The notes under the pieces: model-generated
Told to the model about the DNA's origin: nothing
Seen by the model: only the letters and a program-made list of their open reading frames with translations
Databases searched by the model: none
Position numbers and translations under genes: made by a program
NCBI GenBank assembly: GCA_045837725.1
Contig: JBEWZL010000012.1
Span: forward strand, 124,001-188,000
Reading direction: 5' to 3'
Source: Vermamoeba vermiformis
Lineage: Eukaryota
Length of the DNA stretch: 64,000 bases
Shown here: positions 7,201 to 58,600 of the stretch, piece by piece
Layout of the letters: the number at the start of each line of letters is the position of its first letter
Position numbering within the stretch: position 1 is the stretch's first letter

Positions 7201-9112
7201 AGTATATAGACCACTGACTTATATTTCACTCGTAGCATAAACAACTATTTCATCATTGTACAGCACCCGATGGATCTGGGAACAGTTTGGGTAAGTCGAG
7301 TGGTATTATAGGCGAGTGATAGTATATTAATATAATATGATTGTTGTAGAGCAAGGCAGCGCGAGGTGAATATAAATTTGTGCGTCAAATCGCCGGTGAC
7401 ATTCGCTTGGTGTGGGACAATGCACGGACCTTCAATTTGCCCGATTCGGACATTTATCAACGCGCGGACAGGTATTTAAAGCACATCAAAACACATTATA
7501 GGACTCAATAGTAATACCTCTTTTATTATTGCCAGACTGTCCAAGTTGTTTGAACGAAGGTACAGCGAGTTGAAGCGCACGTTCCAGTTCCCAGACAATT
7601 ATGACTTGGTGAAGACCCCGCAGACCGGAGATTACTTCACTTCTGTATGTCCAACACGGGTCATATTCCATCTTTACTAATGTCATATTAGCTGTTCTCA
7701 CAACGGTTGAATGAATACTACGCGAAGAACCCTCAGGCCCTGCAACCACCACCACTGCCCGCAGCACACCCACAGCCCATCAAGCAGAGCAGCGGCAAGA
7801 CCACGCGCAACACTGGCGAGAAGGCCACAAAGAACAGCGTCAGGAAGTCAACAGGAGCCACTGGCACCAAGCGCAAGGCCGATCAAATCGCTGGGTACGT
7901 GCACTTTGTATTGTGTTTCGAATGACTTGCTAACCGTGCTGTTCAGCAACGGCACTAACGCACAAATCGATCTGACGTCGCAAATGCCGCCACAACAAGC
8001 AGCACCAGTGCGTCAAGCTCCACCTCCTCACGTGCCGCAACAAGCTGCGCCACCGCAACCACAGCCTGTACCGCGCCAAGCACCTCCGCCACAGCCCCAA
8101 CATCACCCTATGGCCCCGCAACCAGTGGCTCATCAACCACCGCCACGTCAAGCACCACCGCCACAGCCGATGATGCAGCCACAGCCAGTGGTACATCAAC
8201 CACCACCCATGCAACGCCAAGCCCCGCCGCCACAACCACCGCCACACCAACAGGCCCCACCACAACAGACACAGTATCAGAGCTTGATGGTGACACCGCT
8301 GTCAACGGAAGAACAGCTCGTTTTGTCGGAAAGATTGAACAACCTCGATCCCGATCAAATGGCGCACGTCGCTGAAATTATCGCGCTGCAGTCTAACACG
8401 AGTGACGTAAGTTTCATTTTGACTTTTGACACCTGTCACTACTCGTACTCACTTCGCCGTCTTTCTTTAAAACAGAGCGAGATTGAAATTGATATTGACT
8501 CGCTGGACATTAAGACACAACGAGCGCTACAGCAGTACGTCTTGAGTGTCACGGGCGGTGGCTCTATGGGCCCAGCAACGAACCCATTCAACGTGGCATC
8601 TGGTGCCCTGCCTCCAAGGCTACCAGAAGAGCCGCAAAACAAGCGCCAGAAAACACATCACGATTATGGCGTGAATGGCGGAGGATACATGGGTGTGCCA
8701 CCGCAGCAATTGAATTCGATGCAGTCACAACAGCAGCGAGGGGTATTATATTAATTTTTGAATTCGAAAATAATGAAATTTTGAAAATAAATATCCTTTT
8801 GAAACAAACAATATCACAATAATAACAAACAAATTATCCATATGAATATATATTCGAAACCAGCAAAGTTGTGTATCTATATAATATAACACAATTGGGA
8901 CTTGAGTGTAATTAATCATCATTTTAGTTCGTCGGATCTGGAGCACTGATCTCAAAAAGTAAGTCGATGGTGGTCCAATATCAAGAGGAGTCTAATATTA
9001 ACGTGTTATAGGAACAGACTTTATGGGCGATGAAGAAGAGTTCACGGACGATGAAGACGACGAGGACTTTGATTTCACCGGCAAAAAATCATCGGGCAAG
9101 CGACACAAATAA
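4202..9112 (+). CDS. Ankyrin repeat + BTB + bromodomain + ET-like domain protein (chromatin regulator)
   Basis: Ankyrin repeats (LLHVAARRG, TPLHIVS, TALHYAA, TALHIAC); BTB (FPDVKISV..AHKAIL, LEYIYTG); bromodomain pieces (FNEPV, YFIIVQHPMDLGTV, DIRLVWDNARTFN); Pro/Gln linker; ET-like EIEIDIDSLDIKTQRALQQYV; acidic tail. The same architecture is known from a Dictyostelium protein. Confidence 0.88.
7985..8265 (+). repeat. Imperfect coding repeats of RQAPPPQP / HQPPP
   Basis: RQAPPP occurs four times in the 7711..8754 reading frame. Confidence 0.75.
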
Positions 9113-15603: not shown

Positions 15604-20626
<5,023 letters not shown>

Positions 20627-36965: not shown

Positions 36966-39900
36966 ATGCTCCGCAAGGGTCTGCAAGTAGCGCTCAGTAG
37001 CAGCAAAAGAATTCCTCATGTGCACACGGCTAATTGTCCGTGCGCTATGATGGCCGACAAAGCGTTTTATTTGCGTGGATGGGATAGCATCACGAAATTT
37101 AGTGAAGAAAATAAAGAACAATTATTCAAGGTATGGATACATTATATACTTATGATGGGCTTATTTAATTTCCTGTTAGTATTAAATTGCGATTTATTTA
37201 TTTTGTCTTTTCAAAGATCTAATTTCAGGTGCCTCAAAAAATACCTTCTAATCACTTCATAACAATATAAACTGTATTAACGTAATTATTAATACCATTT
37301 TAATAGGGCCAAATTAAGCCGAAGCACGTCCGTTACCATTCTACTGAGCCTCCTCAATCCACTGACTACGCCTTTGAAATGGCGACTTCAAATGTTAGGT
37401 ACGTGTATTTATTATTCATTAATAATTATATTCATATTTTCTAACTTATTATAACGCTAGATATGGTCCAGGTGTCACGCGAGAAATCGGATGGGACGTA
37501 AAAGACTTAAAGGCAAATACAGTGGCTGTATTTACGGACCCAGTAAGTATAAAGAGATTGATTGTATTATTTTACGCAGCTTTAATAATTATTCTATTGT
37601 AAGAACTTGAAAAAGATCAAGAATTCGCCGGTGGATGTCGTTTTGCAATCTTTAGTTGATAATGGCGTTAAATACGAGCTCTATAGGTACTATAATATTA
37701 ATATATTATAATCATATGCACTAATCAATTCGTAGCAATGTCCGTGTGGAGCCTACAGATGAGTCGTTCAAAGAAGCAATTCGATTCGCTTCTCAAAAGA
37801 ATTTCGACGCATTTATTGCAGTAGGGTACGTTAATATATTACTATAGTTATTACATATCAATATTTTAATACTGAACTTATCCTTTTAGAGGCGGATCAG
37901 TCATGGACACGTGCAAAGCAGCCAATTTGTATTCGACGTACAAAACGGATAATTTTCTCGATTATGTTAATCCTCCTATTGGTAAATATACTACAATAAT
38001 ATAGCATATAGCCTTCATTGAGCATTAATTGAATGATCATCAAATTCAACGGATGTGTTTCTAATACTAGATCAGGCAAAGGCTTGCCTCCACCGGGTCC
38101 CTTAAAACCTCTTATTGCAGTACCTACTACAGTAAGTATTCTTCTTATATTTTAATATTAATTGCTATTTACCAAATCGTGTATTGTAGGCTGGTACTGG
38201 CAGTGAGACTACAGGTGTTGCAATCTTCGATTTGCTTGAAATGAACGTTAAGACTGGCATTGCTCATCGCTTGCTCAAACCTACATTAGCTGTAAGTACA
38301 ATAATATCAATAAGAACTTCGTGTAACGGCAGATTAGATCCGTATTAAAATTTTATTAGCTTACTAATCGTATTTTAACAGATTGTGGATCCCCATAATA
38401 CTCGTACCGCGCCTGCTACAGTAGCCACTGCATCGGGCTTCGATGTCTTGTGCCACGCTTTAGAGTAAGTCGAGATCCGATCCAAACTGAGAATTGCTGA
38501 AAAAAAATTAACCTATTGTCTTATTGTAGATCTTACACTGCTACACCATACAATCATCGCTCTCCACGACCTCCTAATCCGAAGATGAGACCTGCTTATC
38601 AAGGCGCTAATCGTATCCTTTCAATTCAGAAATTTAAGCACAAGATCTAGCTCGGAAATTATATTATTTGACCCATAAGGAGTGAGGCGCACCTCCCTCT
38701 CGGGCACGACCACACTAACAAGAATGCACCGCTTCCCGTCCGATCAGCGAAGTTAAGCTTGTTCAGGCCTTCTTAGTACTGGGGTAGGAGACTACCTGGG
38801 AATCGGAGGTGTTGTGCTCTTTACTTTTTTTTTCCTTTTTGCTCTAGGTTGGTAATTTCCCGGTAGGGCAAATTTCTTGGGCTAATGATCTACTCCAGCA
38901 TTCAGGGCTATCCATTTTTATTTTTCGTACCGGATCTGATCTGGAGCATTTTTTTTGTTTTGTTTTGTTTTACCTTGACGCACTTACCATAGCTATCTCC
39001 GATGTCTGGTCATTAAAGGCACTGGAGATGTTGTCGCAGTACTTTGTTCGCGCCGTTGAAAATCCTGCTGATGAAGAGGCCAGATCTAACATGATGCTCG
39101 GTAAGATCCGTCAATAATGCCAAAAATACTCTTTAATAATCTTACCATCCCTTATACAATGGTACTTATATTTATTTTCAGCTGCCACTTATGCCGGCAT
39201 CGGATTTGGTAACGCAGGAGTTCATTTATGCGTAAGTCTGCTTTGATTGGTCATATCGCCTGATACTCACGTCATATGTCCTATTCTCAGCACGGCATGT
39301 CCTATCCAGTCAGCGGCATGGTGCGCTCTTATCAGCCAGAAGGTTATCCGAAAGACCATCCGATTATTCCGCACGGATGTGAGTACTGATTTAGAGAATA
39401 TACTCTTAGTGATCGTATTATATTCATATCAACATTTCCTATTAGTATCCGTCGCTCTTCATGCTCCTGCTGTTTTCAGATTTACTGCCTCGGCAAATCC
39501 ACAAAGGTACCGTTACACTCCTTTCTTTCCATAACATATTGTGCGCCTATCTATTTGATAAATATACAGCATAATAGACTCACAATATAATATCAATCGA
39601 TCACTGAAGCCATTATATGCTACCCTATTGAAATTTACATCCACGACCAATTCCATTAATTTTATTTCCATTTTTAGACATTTGCAAGCAGCACGTGCTC
39701 TCGGAGTAAACACCACCAACCTCCGCGAAGAAGATGCCGCTAAAGCCCTGGTCGATCGATTGCTGCAGATCATGAACAGACTCAAAGTCCCGAACGGTCT
39801 CAAAGCCCTCGGATTCACTGAAAATGACATTCCTGAACTCGTGCAAGGTACTACTAAATATAGAGCACGTGATTTTAACGAAATTTCATTAACTTTTGAT

Positions 39901-40095
39901 TTGCAGGCACATTGCCACAACACCGTGTGATTAAATTGTCACCGAGACCTGTTGGTACGTCATTAATAGGAAATATTAATAATATACTCCTCACTATTGT
40001 AATTTAATAATATAATTAAGCTCTGATCTGACTAATTCTTTGTAGGCGAACAAGAACTGACTGCGCTGTTCAAAGCATCGATGAACATTTACTAG
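36966..40095 (+). CDS. ADHFE1: Hydroxyacid-oxoacid transhydrogenase (iron-containing ADH family), mitochondrial, highly intron-rich
   Basis: [104 protein letters not shown] and IPHG. Confidence 0.96.
38613..38992 (+). other. U12-type (minor spliceosome) GT-AG intron
   Basis: 5' site GTATCCTTT; branch site TACCTTGAC (38971-38979) lies 11 nt before the AG. Splicing restores the conserved QGAN|PISD. Confidence 0.85.
38702..38820 (+). rRNA. 5S rRNA gene, intronic
   Basis: 119 nt; terminal helix GGGCACGAC/GTTGTGCTC; CCCGTCCGATC, GAAGTTAAGC (box A), TTAGTACT and GGGAAT; oligo-T Pol III terminator directly after. Confidence 0.95.
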
Positions 40096-43275: not shown

Positions 43276-46200
43276 CTAGTTATTTGTTTCGACCTTAATA
43301 GGCGATCCAATGCCATTAACAACTGCTTGTAGTCTTTCATAAGCATCAGAATCCAAGTGCTCCTTGATGCGCGGCAAGCTGTAGTAGATGTGACGGTGCA
43401 ACTCGACCATACTCAGCAACAAAATGTTTTCGGGGATTTCAACTGGCTGTATGCTAGACTCACTGGTGCCGCCGGGGAGGGTCTATTCAACATAAAATCA
43501 GTACATTGTACGCGCTAGACACGTGTCAAAATGTCTCGCAACACGAGTACGTACCGCGCAATCATCGAAGAACTGATTGATCTCGTTCTGATTCTCATCG
43601 ATAAAGTCATTCAGCTTGGCCATGTGTTGTTCTTTGCCTCCGAGCTTGATGTTGTTGGCAAGGGACTGCAGTGTTTTTGTGATCAACACGAAGACTCTTC
43701 GTGCTTCTTTGCTGGGAACCTCTGAACAAAAGTGAAAAAAAACACTCGTTAGTCATCCATTCAAATAAAAAAAACAATCAAAAACGACCAAATAAAATGA
43801 CGTTGAAATGATATGAAGATGTTCTGCGTGTCAAAGATATTTGTTTTGTGTGCGATTGCTTACTTCTTGTCAAACCGTATGCTTCAGGCAAGTTGATTGC
43901 AGGGTTCAAGAATCGCAAGAAAATGAAGCCACCAATCGCGGTGTGTCTGGCGCTCGGGTACTTCTCGTTAACTTTCTCTTGCAAGTAGTGGCAGATCATG
44001 TTCAAAGGTCTATTTAGGATTAGTCAATATGACTTACAGTACTATAGAATTACGAGCAAATACTTACAAAGGAATGTGCTCGACTGACTTGAGAATCTTA
44101 GACAAGATCTGTTGAGCAGTCAAAAGCAATTGATATTTGTTGACTTTGACGTCTTCTTCTTCTCCCAAAAGTACTGGATCCATCTGAACAAACACAAGTT
44201 AGTTATCAGTCTCAAAAAAAAAGTGACCCGTGTCAACAAGGACGAGATCGCGAGATGACTTACTTCAGTTGAGATTTCACCAGCTGAGGTCTTTTCAACG
44301 AGCAAGAAAATGTCGTCGCTGAGCGTGTTCCACAAGTACTCCAATCCGACCAACTTGCTGTAGAACTTCCAAGCAGTAGTCGTGACGGTGTTGCCACGGA
44401 ACAAGGTACCTTCGTTGGTGTTGTGTTCGCTCAACTCCCTGTCAATCAACGAGTACATGAGGGGCAAGAATCGGCCTTGAGACTCGAACACGTAAGTGAT
44501 GGCTTGTGACACGCGGTCAATGTCAGTGGCACTGGTCACATCTTCATGCACAAGCGCCGTCAAAATGCGCATGTCCTTCTCAGTGATCAACTAAAAACAC
44601 ATCCAAAGTTAGTTCCTCGAGCTTGTCAAATGTTAATAAGGGTCTTATTATACTGACCTCCTTAAGCTTCTGCAAGCCCGGGACGTAAGTGTCACGATCT
44701 TTACGCGGGAGTTTGGACTCAGTCATGGACTTTCCGAAGGCGATGGGCAAGAACTCAGGAGGACCAGGCTTGCGCTTCAACAAAGTAGCGTCGTTAACCC
44801 CACCGCGAGCTCTGCGGCGCAAGAAAATGACGAGCAAGACAACACCACCGATGATGATCAGACCGGCGGGAATGAACAACAAGTACAAGAGTGGATCTGC
44901 TTGGTAGTCCGGGCATTGGTTCTGTTACATCACAAATCGTTAGTAAAGCCAATAGTACTACATCCTATGATATTATTTGGGTATGATCAAGTGAAAATTG
45001 AGCAAGATTTTCGCCGTCGTTATGGATTCGTTTCTCGTCTTAGCGAGATAACGTCATCTATTGCTAAGTGAACGGCGTAATTAATCCTCTCATTATGACT
45101 ACTTACAGCTTGACCGGATGAAATAGCGACACTATTGCCGCTAGGACAGCTTTCGGGAGCACGGCAAGCCCCAACATCGCGACACCACACGCAGCCTGAA
45201 GGGAACGAGGATCCGGTTTGTTTGATGCAAGCCACGCAGCTAGTCTTCTCGTTATGACAACCTACGCATTGCGAAAAGATTGAGTCAAATTTACTCTGAA
45301 AATTCGCACGTGAAAGAGTGGATTTGAAAATGGACTGGAAACACAAATTATCCATTGACCGGAGTTTGGGAATTATAATTAATTATCCATGGATCGATTA
45401 TAAAAGGAATAATGTTAAATTACGATTAATTCAAGAAACGTACCGACAAATTCCCATTGTGCACCGGTGTTCAAGTACACCAACTTGCCATCACCAATAA
45501 AGCCAGGGGTGCTGACCGTTCCGAATGGAGTATTGTAGGCTGTTTTAATATGATTAGTATTGTCACGCGTAACAATTTACTCCGAAACTAAAAATTACTA
45601 GTTTTGACTTGGTGACAGGTGTCATAAAGTGTCACACAGATTGCAATCAATTTAAAAATTAAGTAATGTTGTGGCTGCGCGTGGAATTCGATTTAAGCAG
45701 CTGTAAGGTTATTATATGCGAAGAATCTGTATAGTACTTACAATAGTAAGTCAAAACAGGCCAAGAAGTTAACGGATCAATTCCGCTCGTGGAGAAATTG
45801 AAGTTCAAAGTGAGCTTGCCGTTAAAGTAACCAGTGCCGTTAATCACCATAGAATCGGTATCTACATTGTTGGTACCAGCTATGTAAAACAACAAATCAG
45901 AAAGTAAATTCGCAATCTTGGCCAGAATCTTCGTGACATCAACTTTGAAATTATTCCAGAACTTTGAAATTTAACTAAACTTGATCTTTTGATATATATA
46001 ACGTACCGATAGAGAAGATAAGTTCACCAGTGTTAGCATTTTGATTGAAATCGCCGATCAGTTGGAAAGTACGGGCATTGTTCTTCGAGGGGGCAGTGGC
46101 ATTGCCGATGTAAATAGCGCCGTTGTTATTGATTGTACCAGTCATAATGCCTTGCAACTCCAAGACACCGTCGTTCTGAAGATTTTGTACGGTCAATGAG

Positions 46201-49200
46201 CCTCCAGGATTGACTGCCACATAAGTGGATGGGGCATCTTGGTAGATGGCTCGCTTGCCCGAAGCTTTTGTTTGAATAAAACGACCAGATGAAGCACCGA
46301 GAGTACCACTAACTGTAATGATACCCTTGTTGATGAAATCAACGTTGCCAGAGTCAACAATGACATTCTAAATAAATTTTTGTTAGAAACCGGATCTCGA
46401 TCAAAGAAATATTTGTGGGGATTAATTTTTTGACCTTCAACCAATTAAATATATCTCCATATACATATATGTTATATTGGCAGTCTTACCTTGGGAATGG
46501 TCACATCACCGACGAAGGTAAAGGTCGATCCTTGTCCGTTGAACTGTAAATCGTCTCCGTTACCGCCAACAATGATGGTGTTAACGATAACATTGATGTT
46601 AGACAAGTATTTGCCAGAACCAGATTGGAAGAGAAGATTGTTGACGGTCAAACTGTTGCTTCCAGTTCCGCTAAATCCACCGCTGATCCAGGTAACTGTA
46701 TCGAGAGTGGAGAGACTTGGAGGAATGTTGAAATAACCGCCGTTGAGATTAATAGCGGTAAATATTTGGGTAACATTAGGCTCAGGTTGGAACTCGATCT
46801 GACCACCAGCAGTTGTAACGGATCCGTTGAATTCGCAGGTGATAATCAGCTTGCCAGAAACTACTTCAACAGTGCCTTCGGAAACGTCCAAGCTACCAGC
46901 TACATTCAAAACAATTATTAGATCAAACTAATTCTAAAACCATAATGCCGCGAAAGCGCGATCTGTAGAGGCCTCAAATAATTGAATAAAGCTGCCTTAT
47001 TATAGATTATAGCCATATATTGTTACTTACGTCCGCTAATGTAACCAACACTGCCTTCAGGCAAGAGCACTCTCAACTTGCTAACAACTTTCAAGTTCGT
47101 ACTAGCATCAAGAATGAAGGTTAAACCACCATTCGGACCAGCGTTTTTGCTAAATAAGACGATGTTAGCACCTAGTTGTTATTTACACGCTTAAACGACA
47201 AATTCGTTCGTGGATCGCATCCACAAAATTCAAATACGTACAATTCAAGAGTAGTAACGCGAAGGTTAGGGCCAACTAAAGTAGAGTTCATGCTGAGCGC
47301 AACAGTCAAGCCAGAAAGGCTGGTTCCATCAGCAAACTGCAATTGACCACCGTAAATACCAAGGTTGCGATTGAGAGTGGTCAAAGTGTAACTAAGAATG
47401 GATCCGGGACCCGAAGCAAGACGAACATAATCTGCATATGAATCTCCAACCAAACTAAGAAGAAATCAGTGAGTACACCATAAAAAAGTTGGATGCGGAT
47501 GCACTTACTTTGTGTCCACTACTTGAACGAAGCCGTTATCATAAATGCTGAATGTCTGCATAATGTTAACACCGGTCGTCTTGACACCAACTATAGCTCT
47601 AGTATCCTCAGGAATGACGGTACCAGTGGCGCTACCAGACAAAATAACACGAGCTCCAGCAGCGATGTTCAAGTAATTGCCAGTGACTCCGTCGTCCGTC
47701 AAGTCTGTAGCTAAGACGGTGCCTGACACGATAGTTCCGTTGGCTTGGATCAGCTTGCCGATATGGAAGTCAATGTCGGCAACAACTTTATCGACCACTC
47801 GCAACCAGCTGGTTGAAATCAGATCCGTTTGAATGACGGTGGTACCCGACAAAGCTTCAATATGGCAACCACTCATCGTAGTAGCTGAAATAATTCGTCA
47901 TTAGTAAAAATTGTGGAGGGTTTTTAATCTAAATATGGACTATCGAATCAACTGTTCTAATCATGATCTGATTGATTTTGAAACTTTACAACAGAAAAAT
48001 AAAGAATTAAATTTCGATAGATTGATTTAAAGAGCATCGTGGCTGTTTGAAAAAAAGATGATACTTACTTGACTTAAAGTAACAGAAGTTGGCTTGGCAG
48101 GAAACATAGCCGTTGGAACTTGAAGTAAAAGAACCTTCAACATCGGCTGTACTGATACCCCCGTTCAAGGGAATAGGAACGCCGACGAGACTCAGGCTAA
48201 GAGAGCAATTAGGTCATGCATTCGTATCGTGGCCAGATCCAGATCCGGATCCAGCATAAGCATTTTACTTACGCTGCGCCAGCCGATGAATCAGAGTTAG
48301 AAATATCCCAGGTGCCCTTAATATCAGCGTAATTTGCGGAGATGATGAAACGACTGACGGCGTTGTTGGTAGAAGGAGTGGTAAAAACATTCAAGTACAC
48401 CTTCTCACTGTACAAGCTCCCTGAAACTCCTTTGCCGGGGAAAACGACGTTTCCACTATCAGACAACGAGATTAGGCACGTTATATATGATAGGGCTCTA
48501 CTTACGTAAGAGTAACGTTCATGACGCAGCAGTCAGTGTCGTAAGCAGTGCACGTGTTGCAAGTTCGATCGTCGGTCGTGAGTGAAGTTTCATTGAAGGT
48601 CGACACAACGACAGAACGACCAGAAAGACTGCCGGTCAAATCGATCGTGCCAAGAGTCCAAGTTTTTTCGGTAAAACTGGCGCCGACTGACTTAGACCAC
48701 TCACTTCTGTACAGCAAGCTCAGACCCCTACAACGCATTTAGTAATTGACCATGTTTCGCCTAACAACGCTTAATCTGACTTACTTTCCGACCCTAGTAG
48801 CACCTGAGATAGTGCTGCGAAGCTCGAGCGTAGTTTGGGAACTTTCAATCTGGCTGTACACTACCGAGAAGAGCGTAAGTTTCGATAACAATAAGCGCTC
48901 GAGCAAGTTGTTTTGACTTACCGCTTGCAACTGGCCATGCAATACCACCAACGGGCTGTAGTGCATTGGTAATACTAGCACCACCACCAACGACCAGGTT
49001 TAAAAGAGATCCAGAGTCGAATCTCGGAGCGGGTGAAGCAGCAGTCAGGGACAATCGTCCTTGCAAGTTAAAGGTGATATTGGCATTGCTTTGCAGCCAT
49101 ATAGTACCCCAATTTGTATCGGCAAAAATACCCACACGGCCAGTAGTAGCACTAAATTGCAATAATTAGAATCCGGAATCTAGATCGAATAAAAAAAACC

Positions 49201-52654: not shown

Positions 52655-55600
52655 ATGCGCCGTTTTTTATTTTTGGCTCTATTTATTACACTGGCCTTCG
52701 GTCAAAGTAAGTAATTAACGCATATATTGGTAGTATACAACGAACTGTATGCTATTTTCATTCACCTTATTGAAGGTAGTACTAATAAATTTTTTTTGCT
52801 AGCTATCGTGTCGTGGAACAGCCAAGGTAAGTTAATAATTGCTTAATTCAAATATTATACTCGAGGGAAAACACAATTTAAAAGAATTTAATAATGGAGA
52901 TTCACTTTAATGAAAATGACTGATTTTGCCGCGGTTCGCCACTCAAACCGTTGCAGATGTGACCAAATACATTACACACTTACGCGCAAATATACAATCA
53001 AGGCGATGCGCGATCACTTGTCACAAAAGAAATTAGAGAATCTTGTAATTTAATTTTATTTGACACGTGAAATTCCCAGCGTATTATTGCGTGTAACGAT
53101 TTTCTTTTGCAGGCACAGACCACCTTGTAACTAACACTGCGAATTGGTTTGGCGCCGGTATTCCTGGTGTAACCTCAGTGCCACTCTTCTCCGAAACGTA
53201 AGTCATACCTCCTTGAATCTGATTTGGTAACTAACTAAATCCGGCGCAGAACGGGCATCGTCGAGTTTCCACAAGGATACAATGCAAAATGGGCGTCTGT
53301 AGATTATTCCACAGGCTCGAATATGACATTATTGATGCACCCGAACTCATCTCTCAGTTTCGCTGGAACTTATAGTAAGTGCACTCCGTAAATGCTCAAT
53401 TTTGCATTTTTGTTTCATTTTTACCTAAGTCGGTTTTTGAAATTACCTAATTCATATTTATTGAACCGCGTACTTCGATCTGCGCCCAAACGAAGCGAGC
53501 CAAGTTCTTACGCTCGATTTCGCAAGGAATTTTATCCTGACTTTATATAAATGAAGCAATTTGTACGATTCTAATATTGCTCTTTAGCTGGTTTTATGAC
53601 TGGGCAGTGGAAATTGGATGCGACAGGTCCGGTGATTGTGGACATCACCAAACTACAGAATGGTGATCAATTCTTGATCCTTAACCTTGCTGAAGGTAAT
53701 GTATCTTAATTAGGAGATTTTAAGCCTTACAATAATTCTGGATCACGAAAGTGGCGCAATACCTGATAACTGCTCTTTTATCTAATCTATTATTTTAAGT
53801 CTCCATCCAAGATAATACCGCTACTGTATATTCCTTTGGTCCAATAAGAGCGAAAACTAATTTCAAGTTTGGGTAGGCATCGCGTTCCTTAACATGAATT
53901 GAAACAAAATTTTACTAAAAAAGGAAATCTAATTAATTATTTTAATTTTAGCGCTGGTACTTCCCCCGAGTTTATTTGGCACACGGACTTCCGTTACAAG
54001 ACTCCTGCTAACGTTACGCTCCCCGCTGAAGCGACTTGGACCATTGGCGATGTAGTTGTTCAAGCACCCGCATCTGGATTTGCTTCCGTGAATATCCTTG
54101 CCCTCCCGCTCGGCACTAGACAATTTGGCAAGACCTGCACGGCAAGCTGTACAGTATACGAAGATTGCTGCATTATGAACGCTACACTCAGGTAAGTTTT
54201 CAATGCCCGATCTGCTCTTCAAAGCTTAACTTTTCTATGAAGTGGTGTCACTACTATCAACGGCCAATTCCAGTTCTTGTACGACACAAGTGAAATTCGC
54301 ATCAACTTCGGCTCTTCAAACACGGCCAATGTCGTGCTCAACAAGAATTTGATCTTCCAATCAGCCTCGGTCTCTTTGGACGGCACTTGGCAGATTGACC
54401 CAAGCGCCTCTATTTCGGCGACCGCCCTGGCCATCGCCCCTCTCGGAACTACAGCTACACGCGCAGAGTTCCTTGGCACGATCACTGGTGGAACTGTGAG
54501 CTTGAATGGTTACGACCAGTTGCTCTTTCAGTCGACTGTAGATCTGGCTACCAACGTGCAATTCACCGGCAATCAAGTTGATTTTTACGGCACTGAGCTC
54601 TCCGCAGCTTCGTTGGAGCTCACTGCCTCGACTATGGCTACGCACCTCGATGAAACAAACGTCAACATTGGCAGTTTGACCATCATGACTGACATGACTT
54701 TGACTCAAGGATTTGTTCGTGCTGGTACTTTGAAGGGCTCAGGACAAACCTTTTACGTGTCTTCTGGTATGTGCTGTCAACTAGACATATCTTTAATTGA
54801 ATTGCTATCGCTTGAATTAGAATGACATTTTTGACATGTCGCGCGGGCATATCTTTAATACTTTAATTTATAGGTGCATCTTTAACGGTCGATACATTTG
54901 CAACTGCCCCCAGCATTGTTTTGGAGTCATTTTCTTCTATTTTGGCTATTACTTCACCAGACTACTCCTTTGATCCGTTGAATTCCGTTTCAGGCTCAGT
55001 TTCGCTGCTTTTAGTTAGCAACAACAAGTAAGTCCACGAGCTCGCCTTATATATGGTCAATACTAAATATTATGGTTTAGTTTCGTTGGTGAAAACGTGC
55101 CCGGAAACTTCCCGTTGAGAATTGGTGAGGACGCGACCTTGACTTACGCGAGCTCTTCAGTTAGTCGCCAACTTGAGATGTACGGAGGCACTTTGAAATT
55201 TAGTGCTCCAACCGTTACTCTCGACCACCTCATTGCCAAGTTCAGAAGCAATGCTACAATTTCAGGCAGCGTTATTAACGTGAGCTCCATGGAGATGTAA
55301 GTCGGCGTCAAGTGCACCTTGCGCACCACCTTGCTAACTTTCCTTGCAGTGTTGCCTCGAGGATTGTCAACAAGGTGCTCGTCATTGACACCAACACGAG
55401 ACTTAACATTGTTGGATCGCTTAACGTGTCTATTCCGACCGGATCTGTTGCCACACTTTCGGGAGGTAAGTCCGACCGGATCTAGAAGATATAGTTCCAA
55501 TTTTTAACGGTTGTAATAGCTGGCATATTGGACGCTTCGCAAGGATCAATTGAAGTGTGGTCAGGCAAGCTGATTATTCAAACTGATTTTGTCGGCTCCG

Positions 55601-58600
55601 TGACTGTTCGTGGCGGTTCTGTCGAGTTCCAAAAGTTGACTGACTCGACTTTCCACAACGTGACCTCAGTCGTCATGAACGGCGGTAACGTCGAATCTAC
55701 TCTCTCGGCGTACACCTTGCCAGTCTTGCAATGGAAGTCTGGTTCTATCAAAGCTACGAAGACTTTGACCATTGAACGATTGGTGATTTCGGGCACTGAC
55801 ACCAAGGCCATTGCCGATGGATCTGTGTTGAACATTTCTTCTATTGATATTTCCGACTCAACTGGCTTCGATGCTCCGAACACAGTCACTATTAACAACA
55901 TTGGCGAGTTCTATTTACCTACTGTAAGTCTTGACAAACGGATGTTGGATTTGGCTTCGTACTGACTTTCCTGTAGGGCATTTCTTTGAACGGTGGTCAA
56001 GCTAGATTCAACAACTATGGCTCAGTCACGATCTCGCAAGGTGCTTCGTTCACTTGCAGCAACTACTTGAATTCTCAAACGGCTCAATCCGGGTCTACCT
56101 TCGCTCGTCGATCTGTGGCCCAATCAGCCGGCGGCAGTGCTGTTACTATTATGAACGGCGGCACACTATCGGGAACCGTAACCAACTCTGGTTTCTTCCA
56201 AGCTACGGGCATTATAACCGGAGATTTTAGAAACCTTGGCCAGATTTACGTTGGCAACTTCTCTCAGAACAGCGTGGGCTTATTGAGACAACTCAATATT
56301 TCTGGCACCTTCGACAACACTGCAACCGTTACCATTACACCGGTAGTAACTTTGAAAATCGGTAAGTTTTATTTTAGTTGCCCTAAATTAGCGAATTACA
56401 ACGGGATCCTGCTGGAGCCAAAAAAAGCCGACAATGGTTTTAAATCCGGATTAATTAGCTAATTACATAATTTTAAACTTTTAAAACACAAAATACTTTA
56501 AAATTCTGTTCACTAATTTACATCTTTTGGATTCAGCCGGAACCACGATTGCGGATACGGATGTGCTTCAAGCCAATGTGATGAGCTTGGGCGGCATGCT
56601 CAACTTGAACTTCACCTTCTCGACCAAGACAGTAGACGTATTGACCTCTTGGTTCGTGATTGCAACTCCTTGTAAGTGCTATTTTTGATCAATCGCGTGT
56701 CAAAAAAATGTCAAATTGTTTTCGGCTTTATTTTCACTGAAAACGAATCAATCCCGCAATTGCATCAATACCATTAGCTTATTCATCGATAATGTTACAT
56801 TAATGATGGTACTAATTAATTCGTTTAGCTTACACCAGCCAATTCACTACGGTTGCCGCCGATACTTTTGAAGGCCAAGGCCGCTTAGTCTACACATCCA
56901 CTGGTGCTCAATGGGAGTTTGTTGGTAAGTAGTACTATAAGGCACATTAAATATATTGATTCAGCATTTCTATACTTGCCGACACAGATCTCGTAACACG
57001 TGGCAAGATATTTCGGCACGGAAGCGGAATACTCTTGCCCCGGGTTATTTTCATGAACGGAGATTTAATACGATCTATTTTTATAGGCTGCCATAACGAG
57101 AAGGTTAGCTGTACCTCGTGCATCAAGCAAACCGGAACTTCATTCCCGAACGGATGTGACTGGTGTAAAACTGCGGGAGTGTGTCGTGCTGCGGGTACTT
57201 GTGGCAGCTCTGACGCCATTGACGTGATTACGACCTCAGAAGAGGTAAGCGAATTATTGCGACACGTGATCAGATCCAGATCGGGACCACTAACAGTTCA
57301 CAATTTAGAATCAATGCCCTGATGCCCCCGAGAACAAACTGCTGTACCTCTTGTTCATCCCCGGCGCCCTCGTGCTCGGCGGTGGTATTGTCGTCTTAGT
57401 CGTGTTCTTGAAGCGAAGAAACAGAGTCGGTGGTAACGCGGATGCCGTCTTGTTGAAGAAAAAACCAGGCCCACCTGAGTTCTTGCCCATCGCTTTCGGT
57501 CCTAGCATGATGGAGTCCAAGTTGAGCAAGAAGGACAAAGATCTTGTGCCTGCTTTGGAGCGCTTGAAAGATGTACGTAGTGCCCACAACCCCGCGTCAC
57601 ACGAGCATTTGCTAACATGTTTTTTCACTAGCTTTTGCTCGAAGAGAACATGGAAGTCGTTATGGCCATCACCGACAACGATGTGATCAAGGCTGTAGAT
57701 CTCGACAAGGTGTGCCAAGCCTTGACTTACGTCTTCGAGTCTGTTGGTCGGTACCCTCACCTCTTGAACGCGCTTGTTGACCGTGAAGTCGAACAACACC
57801 ACAGCGACGAAGGTAAGCGATTAGATGAATGTTTTAACTGTTAGAATATCCCGCTGATCCATTGCTCACAGCGAGTCTTTTGCGTGGTAATACTGTCGCC
57901 ACCATCAGCTGGAAGTTCTACAGCAAGTTGGTCGGATTGGAGTACTTGTGGAACACTCTCAGCGACGCTATCTATTTGCTCGTCGAAAAGACCTCAGCTG
58001 GTGAAATCTCAACTGAAGTAAGTCATCTCGCAATCTCGATCTTGTTGACACGTGTCACTTTTTTTGAGACTGATGACTAACTTGTGTGTTTGTTCAGATG
58101 GATCCAGTACTTTTGGGAGAAGAAGAAGACGTCAAAGTCAACAAATACCAACTGATGTTAACAGCGCAACAGATCTTGTCTAAGATTGTCAAGTCCGTTG
58201 AGCACGTGCCTCTACCTATGAAGTTCATCTGCCATCACTTGCAAGAGCGTGTCATGGCCAAGTACCCTTCGATGCGCTACACTAGTGTTGGTGGCTTCAT
58301 TTTCTTGCGATTCTTGAACCCTGCAATCAACTTGCCTGAAGCATACGGTTTGACAAGAAGTAAGCAATCGCACACAAAACAAATATCTTTGACGCGTGAA
58401 CATTTTTTGATATCATTTTAACGTCATTTTATTTGCTCGTTTTTGATTGTTTTTTTTTATTTGAATGGATGACTAACGAGTGTTTTTTTTCACTTTTGTT
58501 CAGAGGTTCCCAGCAAAGAAGCACGAAGAGTCTTCGTTCTGTTGACCAAGACCCTGCAGTCACTCGCTAACGGCATCAAGCTCGGAGGCAAAGAACAACA

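Follow-up and report, generated by a model that had tools for sequence, protein, structure and literature searches.

It is well known that RNA genes can be nested within the introns of protein genes, and several described systems resemble the locus that is reported here. The intronic genes of small nucleolar RNAs (snoRNAs) have neither a promoter nor a terminator of their own, the snoRNAs being trimmed from the spliced intron. In Caenorhabditis, the nested tRNA and small nuclear RNA (snRNA) genes that belong to large families turn over fast, with few orthologues surviving (Wang and Ruvinsky 2012, PMC3342880), and in the first intron of Polr3e a MIR element that is occupied by RNA polymerase III (Pol III) lowers the expression of the host gene by transcriptional interference (Yeganeh et al. 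2017, PMC5358760). As for the introns of the minor, U12-type class, the consensus is [G/A]TATCCTT at the donor and TTCCTT[G/A]AC at the branch site (Larue et al., bioRxiv 10.1101/2020.10.12.336362; NAR 2023 PMC10639083), and in Physarum polycephalum, which has more than 20,000 minor introns, TTTGA has taken the place of the usual branch motif (bioRxiv 10.1101/2020.10.12.336362). The locus described here lies in a stretch of 64,000 nucleotides (nt) of Vermamoeba vermiformis (assembly GCA_045837725.1, contig JBEWZL010000012.1, positions 124,001 to 188,000 of the forward strand; hereafter the window, numbered from its first letter), where a full-length 5S rRNA gene stands on the sense strand in intron 10 of an ADHFE1-type gene, the intron carrying splice signals of the U12 class.

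Compared with these systems, the locus is a documented curiosity that is built from known parts. The donor of intron 10, GTATCCTTT, and the motif CCTTRAC near the 3' splice site fit the consensus of Larue et al., and, like the introns treated there, intron 10 has a phase other than 0 and is of an uncommon kind in its surroundings, being one in the 16 of the gene. Unlike in Physarum, the branch site is of the classical form and the 64 kb hold no second convincing minor intron. As in Caenorhabditis, a small RNA gene of a large family lies wholly inside an intron of a protein gene and the copy can be traced by the orthology of the host; the differences are that the copy of the window survives across a synonymous divergence (dS) of 1.2-1.4, that the RNA is 5S rRNA, that the host intron is U12-type and that the organism is a microbial eukaryote. 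With the MIR of Polr3e the locus has in common that a Pol III unit is conserved within the intron of a gene of RNA polymerase II (Pol II), whereas the MIR is antisense, a relic of a short interspersed element and placed in a major-type mammalian intron, the unit of the window being a sense-strand 5S gene that is known from its sequence. With the intronic snoRNA genes it shares a structured RNA on the sense strand of the host intron and differs from them by a T-run terminator and the usual internal-promoter region. The accessible parts of bioRxiv 10.1101/2020.10.12.336362 and PMC10639083 are silent on Pol III genes within minor introns, and our searches of the open-access literature brought up neither a 5S gene described in an intron, U12-type or other, nor a minor intron in ADHFE1. 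The locus is presented as a clean natural example, conserved in a relative, in which a Pol III gene lies sense-strand within a minor intron.

Splice signals of intron 10 and the 5S rRNA gene inside it

The features of the host gene and of intron 10 on which the argument is built are as follows.

36966..40095, plus strand: host gene, an ADHFE1-type hydroxyacid-oxoacid transhydrogenase (Fe-ADH family) with 17 coding exons and 16 introns
36966, plus strand: alternative in-frame ATG, read from the sequence, which would add a presequence of 27 residues
37047, plus strand: start of the spliced model (MMADK)
38530..38612, plus strand: exon 10, ending in ...CAAGGCGCTAATC (…YQGAN and the first base of a Pro codon), with 74 of 83 bases identical in the relative treated below
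38613..38992, plus strand: intron 10, 380 nt, phase 1, GT-AG, U12-type by its signals, the longest of the gene
38613..38621, plus strand: U12-type 5' splice site GTATCCTTT, from the sequence, the sole match in the window
38669..38674, plus strand: TGACCC (-33 to -28 relative to the 5S gene), tentatively a candidate promoter element upstream of the gene
38702..38820, plus strand: full-length 5S rRNA gene, on the strand of the host gene (RF00001, 104.7 bits)
38820..38833, plus strand: Pol III terminator-like T-run (TTT, AC, then nine T)
38973..38979, plus strand: U12-type branch-point motif CCTTGAC, from the sequence, 13-14 nt before TAG
38990..38992, plus strand: 3' splice site TAG, from the sequence, the homologue junction and the spliced model
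38993..39100, plus strand: exon 11, with 86 of 108 bases identical in the relative
40093-40095, plus strand: stop codon TAG

The exon structure was taken from tblastn and from a spliced gene model for which the template was P0124, a database protein of 473 residues from a close relative that is named hydroxyacid-oxoacid transhydrogenase by its source. Together they give 17 exons and 16 introns between 37047 and 40098, with at least 446 of the 473 residues being identical between the window gene and P0124; the boundaries of intron 16 (39955-40045) were set by hand from the sequence. When 38612 is joined to 38993 the translation becomes ...YQGAN-P-ISDVW..., the intron falling between the first and second bases of the Pro codon (phase 1), and exactly the same sequence is read by P0124 across the predicted junction of exons 10 and 11. 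At this junction three distant homologues read YQGSNPISDVWS; they and P0124 have in common ...YQG[A/S]NPISDVWS.... In the spliced model, no alternative donor or acceptor near intron 10 preserves both the frame and the junction sequence. A preliminary description of the window, made before this analysis, had placed an intron with minor-class signals at 38613..38992, and this call proves exact, the junction being shared by P0124 and both GTATCCTTT and CCTTGAC being in place. Its label for the host, ADHFE1, is right at the family level: P0124 matches the Pfam domains Fe-ADH (PF00465, 1.1e-41) and ADH_Fe_C (PF25137, 5.6e-35), and the top named eukaryotic relative of P0124 is a dictyostelid protein of 65% identity that its sources call iron-containing alcohol dehydrogenase / hydroxyacid-oxoacid transhydrogenase. 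The host is thus ADHFE1-like at the level of the family, its enzyme being a predicted one.

The class of intron 10 was called by comparison with its 15 sister introns and with the published consensus. Its donor agrees with the U12 consensus [A/G]TATCCTT at 9 of 9 positions. A U12-like donor (TATCC at +2 to +6) occurs in none of the 15 sister introns, which start with GTAAGT, GTACGT, GTAAAT, GTGAGT or similar and many of which have CTAAC/CTAAT-like branch sites. The sister introns measure 49-176 nt against the 380 nt of intron 10, as had been claimed before in saying that it is longer than the neighbouring ADHFE1 introns. The presumed branch A is at 38978, with 14 nt to the last intron base; GCACTTACCATAG then follows, a sequence in which no pyrimidine tract stands between the branch motif and the 3' splice site.

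It should be noted that the 9-mer GTATCCTTT by itself is not significant against chance: it is observed once in the window where 0.62 is expected, with at least one occurrence in 47 of 100 shuffles, and CCTTRAC is observed 14 times against 12.5 expected. What lifts the signals above chance is that the single 9-mer sits exactly on the donor borne out by the homologous proteins, that the branch motif is 13-14 nt away from the acceptor belonging to it, and that both are conserved in a relative that is saturated at synonymous sites.

Strict and relaxed scans for donor-like sequences on both strands of the 64 kb gave 7 strict and about 20 further relaxed matches, and among these only the one at 38613 both borders an exon and is followed by a suitable branch site and acceptor. 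As far as donor scans can test it, then, intron 10 stands as the only minor-type intron of the window, as had been noticed earlier. The candidate donor at 54092 (ATATCCTTG) was rejected because it lies inside an exon, and that at 53701 because it lies 4 nt inside an ordinary GTAATG donor; the candidates at 8791, 47602, 63305, -53280 and -8688 either lack a suitable branch site and acceptor that would leave the frames open or are antisense to long open reading frames (ORFs). As a separate observation, intron 15 (39848-39906) has TTTGA 8 nt before its 3' splice site, like the minor branch motif of the Physarum type, and has an ordinary donor, GTACTA; we take this TTTGA as chance. Rfam searches, a permissive scan included, found no snRNA of any kind within the 64-kb window, U11, U12, U4atac and U6atac included. 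The conserved U12-type signals may be read as indirect evidence for a working minor spliceosome.

The 5S gene matches Rfam RF00001 over model positions 1-120 of 120, with its 104.7 bits standing against a gathering score of 38 (E 6.6e-22). A complete sense-strand 5S gene with its own T-run had been described at this place, and the full-length match together with the T-run at 38820-38833 confirms it. The permissive Rfam scan found no second piece of 5S in the window, so the 64 kb contain a single copy, with no tandem array and no ribosomal DNA (rDNA) nearby. A 41-nt piece of the 5S gene gave 0 matches against viral contigs.

Conservation of the nested arrangement in a relative

A scan of metagenome contigs with P0124 gave 18 loci, from which the four intron-bearing orthologues (L016, L009, L015 and L014) were used; the 14 further loci, which are more distant and mostly give uninterrupted matches as in intron-less genes, were left out. 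L014 and L015 overlap with 99.95% identity over 2124 nt and L009 and L016 with 99.7% over 350 nt. In this relative 17 of 17 exons have the same lengths as in the window and are flanked by ag/gt, all 16 intron positions being common to the two, and 447 of 475 translated positions are identical. The comparison gives a nonsynonymous divergence (dN) of 0.03, a dS of 1.2-1.4, a third-position identity of 0.55 and a coding identity of 0.83; with such values of dS and third-position identity, the synonymous sites are saturated. Orthologous introns have global identities of 0.26-0.77, which is about the background for short AT-rich sequences.

Against this background the elements of intron 10 stand out. 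In L009 the end of exon 10 is followed by the identical 9-mer GTATCCTTT (1437-1445), with divergence beginning immediately after it. L015 begins partway through a 5S gene on the sense strand (RF00001, 79.4 bits, truncated where the contig ends), in which 102 of the 103 comparable bases are identical to those of the window; the gene is followed by TTC and twelve T (TTCTTTTTTTTTTTT), a T-run at the same place as in the window, then by about 110 unalignable bases, and then by TCCTTAAC, 14 nt, AG and exon 11. The identity of 102/103 in the 5S gene is to be compared with only 0.58 and 0.49 in the two flanks of intron 10 and with 0.83 in the coding sequence. These alignments show that the 5S gene, its orientation, the T-run and both U12 signals have been retained while their surroundings were randomised. 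By the same comparison the nested arrangement would be old, predating the split from a relative at dS above 1.

An origin of the 5S gene from a mobile element was considered and rejected, since no direct repeats or target-site duplications are found around the gene and its flanks share nothing with those of the relative.

RNA evidence and the weighing of explanations

Four RNA runs were used, X1 consisting of contigs of a close relative and X16-X18 of raw reads of a more distant relative. In X1, 11 of the 16 introns are seen spliced (2, 3, 4, 6, 7 and 11-16), and there is no depth at exons 9 and 10; X16-X18 cover almost only the body of the 5S gene, with depths of about 25 + 25 fold in the first 5S bin for X16 and X17. 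Within 38702-38820 no variant position reaches 10% of the RNA reads in X16-X18, at about 50x per run, and therefore the copy of the window equals the expressed 5S of that relative.

In X16-X18, 77-93% of the reads that match 5S continue into unlike flanks, with at least three related versions upstream and several versions downstream, and the 5S contig of X1 has a downstream flank that differs again. Reads and contig together run into four or more different flanks, a sign that 5S copies are numerous and lie in differing contexts, in these relatives rather than in the present genome. The dispersed 5S genes that had been proposed for the organism are in this way supported indirectly, by the one non-tandem copy in 64 kb with no rDNA nearby and by the at least four flanks in relatives. 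Two minor observations on these reads are added. At 38818-38821 a few reads of X16 and X17 have 19-25 A directly after the 3' end of 5S and then 5S again, which suggests polyadenylated 5S RNA or a library artefact in the related organism. At 38783 and 38808 some reads of X16 and X18 quit the 5S mid-gene into a shared sequence ending ...GTGCCAAGAAACTTCAAGC, which suggests truncated 5S copies fused to another repeat there.

The common upstream flank in X16-X18 and the twice-repeated unit of the relative's intron (L009, 1510-1601) share GTAGTGACC[C/T]GAACA, with some 30 nt from the start of TGACC[C/T] to GGGCAC in the flank as well as in the unit. The TGACCC of the window, with its offset of 3 nt, may tentatively be regarded as the corresponding upstream element, an assignment made post hoc. 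As to the repeat units themselves, intron 10 of the relative (L009, 1502-1601) holds two tandem units of 54 nt, each with the 5S upstream motif AGTAGTG[A/C]CCTGAACAAC; GGGCAC follows about 30 nt after the motif, without 5S sequence behind it, and the contig ends there. In these units the motif forms an inverted-repeat pair with GGGCACTATTT.

A parallel that bears on the role of the intron class is found elsewhere in the window, in the only other Pol III gene that it contains.

16834-17082, plus strand: host intron of the tRNA gene, 249 nt, phase 1, U2-type (GTAATA ... CTAAC ... TAG), in an ABC-transporter gene
16924-16998, plus strand: tRNA-Asn(GTT), 65.6 bits

The ABC-transporter host has a Pfam ABC_membrane match on the next exon and ABC_tran further on, the frame across the intron having been read from the sequence. 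Like the intron of the 5S gene, this intron is several times longer than the typical introns of the window. Both Pol III genes of the window therefore sit sense-strand inside introns, one in each intron class, and since the tRNA-Asn gene nests likewise in a U2-type intron, nesting does not depend on the minor class. That the 5S gene has a minor-class host intron is probably irrelevant to the nesting, that is, a coincidence.

Starting from the observed 5S gene, the intron with its junction, the splice signals and the conservation of all these, we propose that an independent Pol III 5S gene is nested by descent in a genuine U12-type intron, with the minor class being coincidental, and we consider this explanation the probable one. 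The 5S gene would be transcribed by Pol III from its internal promoter, perhaps assisted by an upstream element near -30, and the T-run of the gene would serve as the terminator. The nested layout would have arisen before the split from the saturated relative and have been kept since then, with separate reasons for the retention of its parts: the 5S sequence because it belongs to the 5S family, the splice signals because the host mRNA depends on them. The nesting itself would be a side effect of having Pol III genes dispersed through a compact and very intron-rich genome. For the window copy we thus infer transcription by Pol III, splicing by U11/U12 and the absence of a functional coupling between the two.

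Several points weigh against this explanation. The spliced junction of exons 10 and 11 is in no read or contig of X1 and X16-X18, and record 5 of X1 (704 nt, depth 5.9) starts near 38900 and holds the last 81 nt of intron 10 (38912-38992), its branch motif included, followed by five correctly spliced junctions (introns 11-14 and 16). The depth of X1 in bins wholly within introns 1 and 14 is zero, and thus genomic DNA is an unlikely source of the record, which fits retention of intron 10 and equally fits a coverage break or an internal start, being one contig of another strain or species and carrying no count. The RNA reads of the relatives match the body of the 5S gene, none being assignable to the copy of the window. 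The first T-stretch after the 5S is only TTT where most related copies have TTTT (place 38823). The minor snRNAs and minor-specific proteins of this genome are putative, and CCTTGAC is also compatible with a U2 branch site if the consensus is taken loosely. The assignment of L009 and L015 to one species is drawn from their equal divergence and from their overlaps with L016 and L014 rather than from a joining contig. Finally, the survival of the copy across dS above 1, when set against the fast turnover in nematodes, could mean that the arrangement itself has been under selection.

The last of these points would be expected if the two parts were functionally coupled, with either the Pol III complex that occupies the 5S gene or a 5S structure folded within the pre-mRNA slowing or gating the removal of the minor intron or blocking Pol II, so that the output of ADHFE1 would be tied to 5S or ribosome demand and the layout would be under selection. 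The nested copy and its orientation are indeed conserved across dS 1.2-1.4, record 5 joins the last 81 nt of intron 10 to five spliced junctions and is unlikely to be genomic, and the MIR of Polr3e shows that intron-nested Pol III units can interfere with a host gene (PMC5358760). Against such a coupling, descent with separate selection on each part explains the conservation equally well, the record is a single contig of depth about 6 from a relative, with no quantification and with a start that may be a coverage break, the tRNA-Asn gene in its U2-type intron leaves nothing that links nesting to the minor class, and fully spliced mRNA is made by a close relative, as P0124 attests. We therefore regard the coupling as unlikely. 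In its most specific form, it would make the 5S gene and the minor intron one selected unit, where occupancy by Pol III and TFIIIA or the 5S fold controls the retention of a slow U12-type intron and the output of a mitochondrial transhydrogenase follows ribosome demand, which would explain the survival of the arrangement; this version is a little less likely still. The suggestion of the preliminary description that Pol III occupancy might interact with slow minor-intron splicing accordingly finds no support, record 5 being the sole weak hint of it and the tRNA-Asn gene standing in a U2-type intron. Alternatively, the 5S copy could be silent, a passenger or pseudogene that is held identical to its family only by gene conversion. 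It would then be understandable that X1 and X16-X18 give no copy-specific RNA evidence, that TTT-AC breaks the terminator where most related copies have TTTT, and that only TGACCC, at an offset of 3 nt, matches the upstream flank common to other copies. The structure of the gene, however, is intact at 104.7 bits, the gene is identical to its orthologue at 102 of 103 bases amid a randomised intron, and a T-run is present in both species, with the nine T that lie 5 nt downstream being such that they would still terminate Pol III. A silent copy is thus doubtful, although it deserves slightly more weight than the coupling.

The remaining two alternatives concern the machinery. It could be supposed that the major spliceosome removes intron 10 and that the U12-like motifs are relics or chance, a supposition to which the still putative minor snRNAs, the GT-AG ends, the fit of TTGAC to the loose U2 branch consensus and the chance frequency of the 9-mer taken alone all lend something. 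If so, it would be hard to see why the donor agrees with the U12 consensus at 9/9 positions and recurs unchanged in the relative, at dS above 1, when the very next bases differ, why both species have conserved the branch motif at the distance that is optimal for it, and why GTATCC is unlike the U2 donors of the gene at +4 to +6 in 15 of 15 comparisons; removal by the major spliceosome is accordingly very unlikely. It could also be supposed that the 5S RNA is not made by Pol III and is cut from the intron of the host pre-mRNA as intronic snoRNAs are, considering that the gene stands sense-strand inside the intron and that the 77-93% of 5S reads of X16-X18 that enter unlike flanks imply 5S within longer RNAs in the relatives. 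The excess of flank-bearing reads, however, is accounted for by the size selection of RNA-seq, which removes the mature RNA of 120 nt. The two species have conserved a T-run immediately behind the gene, a common upstream motif is present near -30, and 5S genes are type-1 Pol III genes throughout eukaryotes. Excision of this kind is hardly to be believed.

Returning to the independent 5S gene in a U12-type intron, what the locus adds is that the arrangement is old, at dS above 1, and that a tRNA gene is nested likewise in a major-type intron. It is also indicated, indirectly, that this lineage keeps classical U12 signals rather than the transformed ones of the Physarum type and that its 5S and tRNA genes are scattered inside introns. 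If it is functional, the locus would offer a simple system for the effects of Pol III complexes and minor splicing on a Pol II host gene.

Affinities of the window and repeated words

The glycogen phosphorylase and the ADHFE1 of the window both have dictyostelids as their closest named matches, at 64-65%. A tree made by a quick method, with 32 rows picked from 120 listed, places the window outside both Dictyostelia and Fungi, without resolution.

It is noted that CGGATCTG occurs near the 5S gene, near the 5S of the relative and near the tRNA-Asn gene. As a motif linked with Pol III it was rejected, its 15 occurrences in the window lying in exons and introns alike and GATCTG and CGGATC being in excess across the whole window. 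These 15 occurrences (e.g. at 8933, 16889, 38931, 48240 and 55440) compare with 1.3 expected, a count of 15 being reached in 0 of 100 shuffles. The hexamers of the window that are most over-represented by base composition are GATCTG (97 against 28.7 expected), CGGATC and TGGATC, which are found in exons and introns.

Finally, a 23-nt word, with its last base differing, is present in inverted orientation at 43840 (minus strand) and 58383 (plus strand), and two long ORFs on opposite strands, 45975-47897 (minus) and 54241-56462 (plus), encode proteins of a similar repetitive type without Pfam domains. Taken together, the word and the ORFs look like an inverted duplication of a gene pair.

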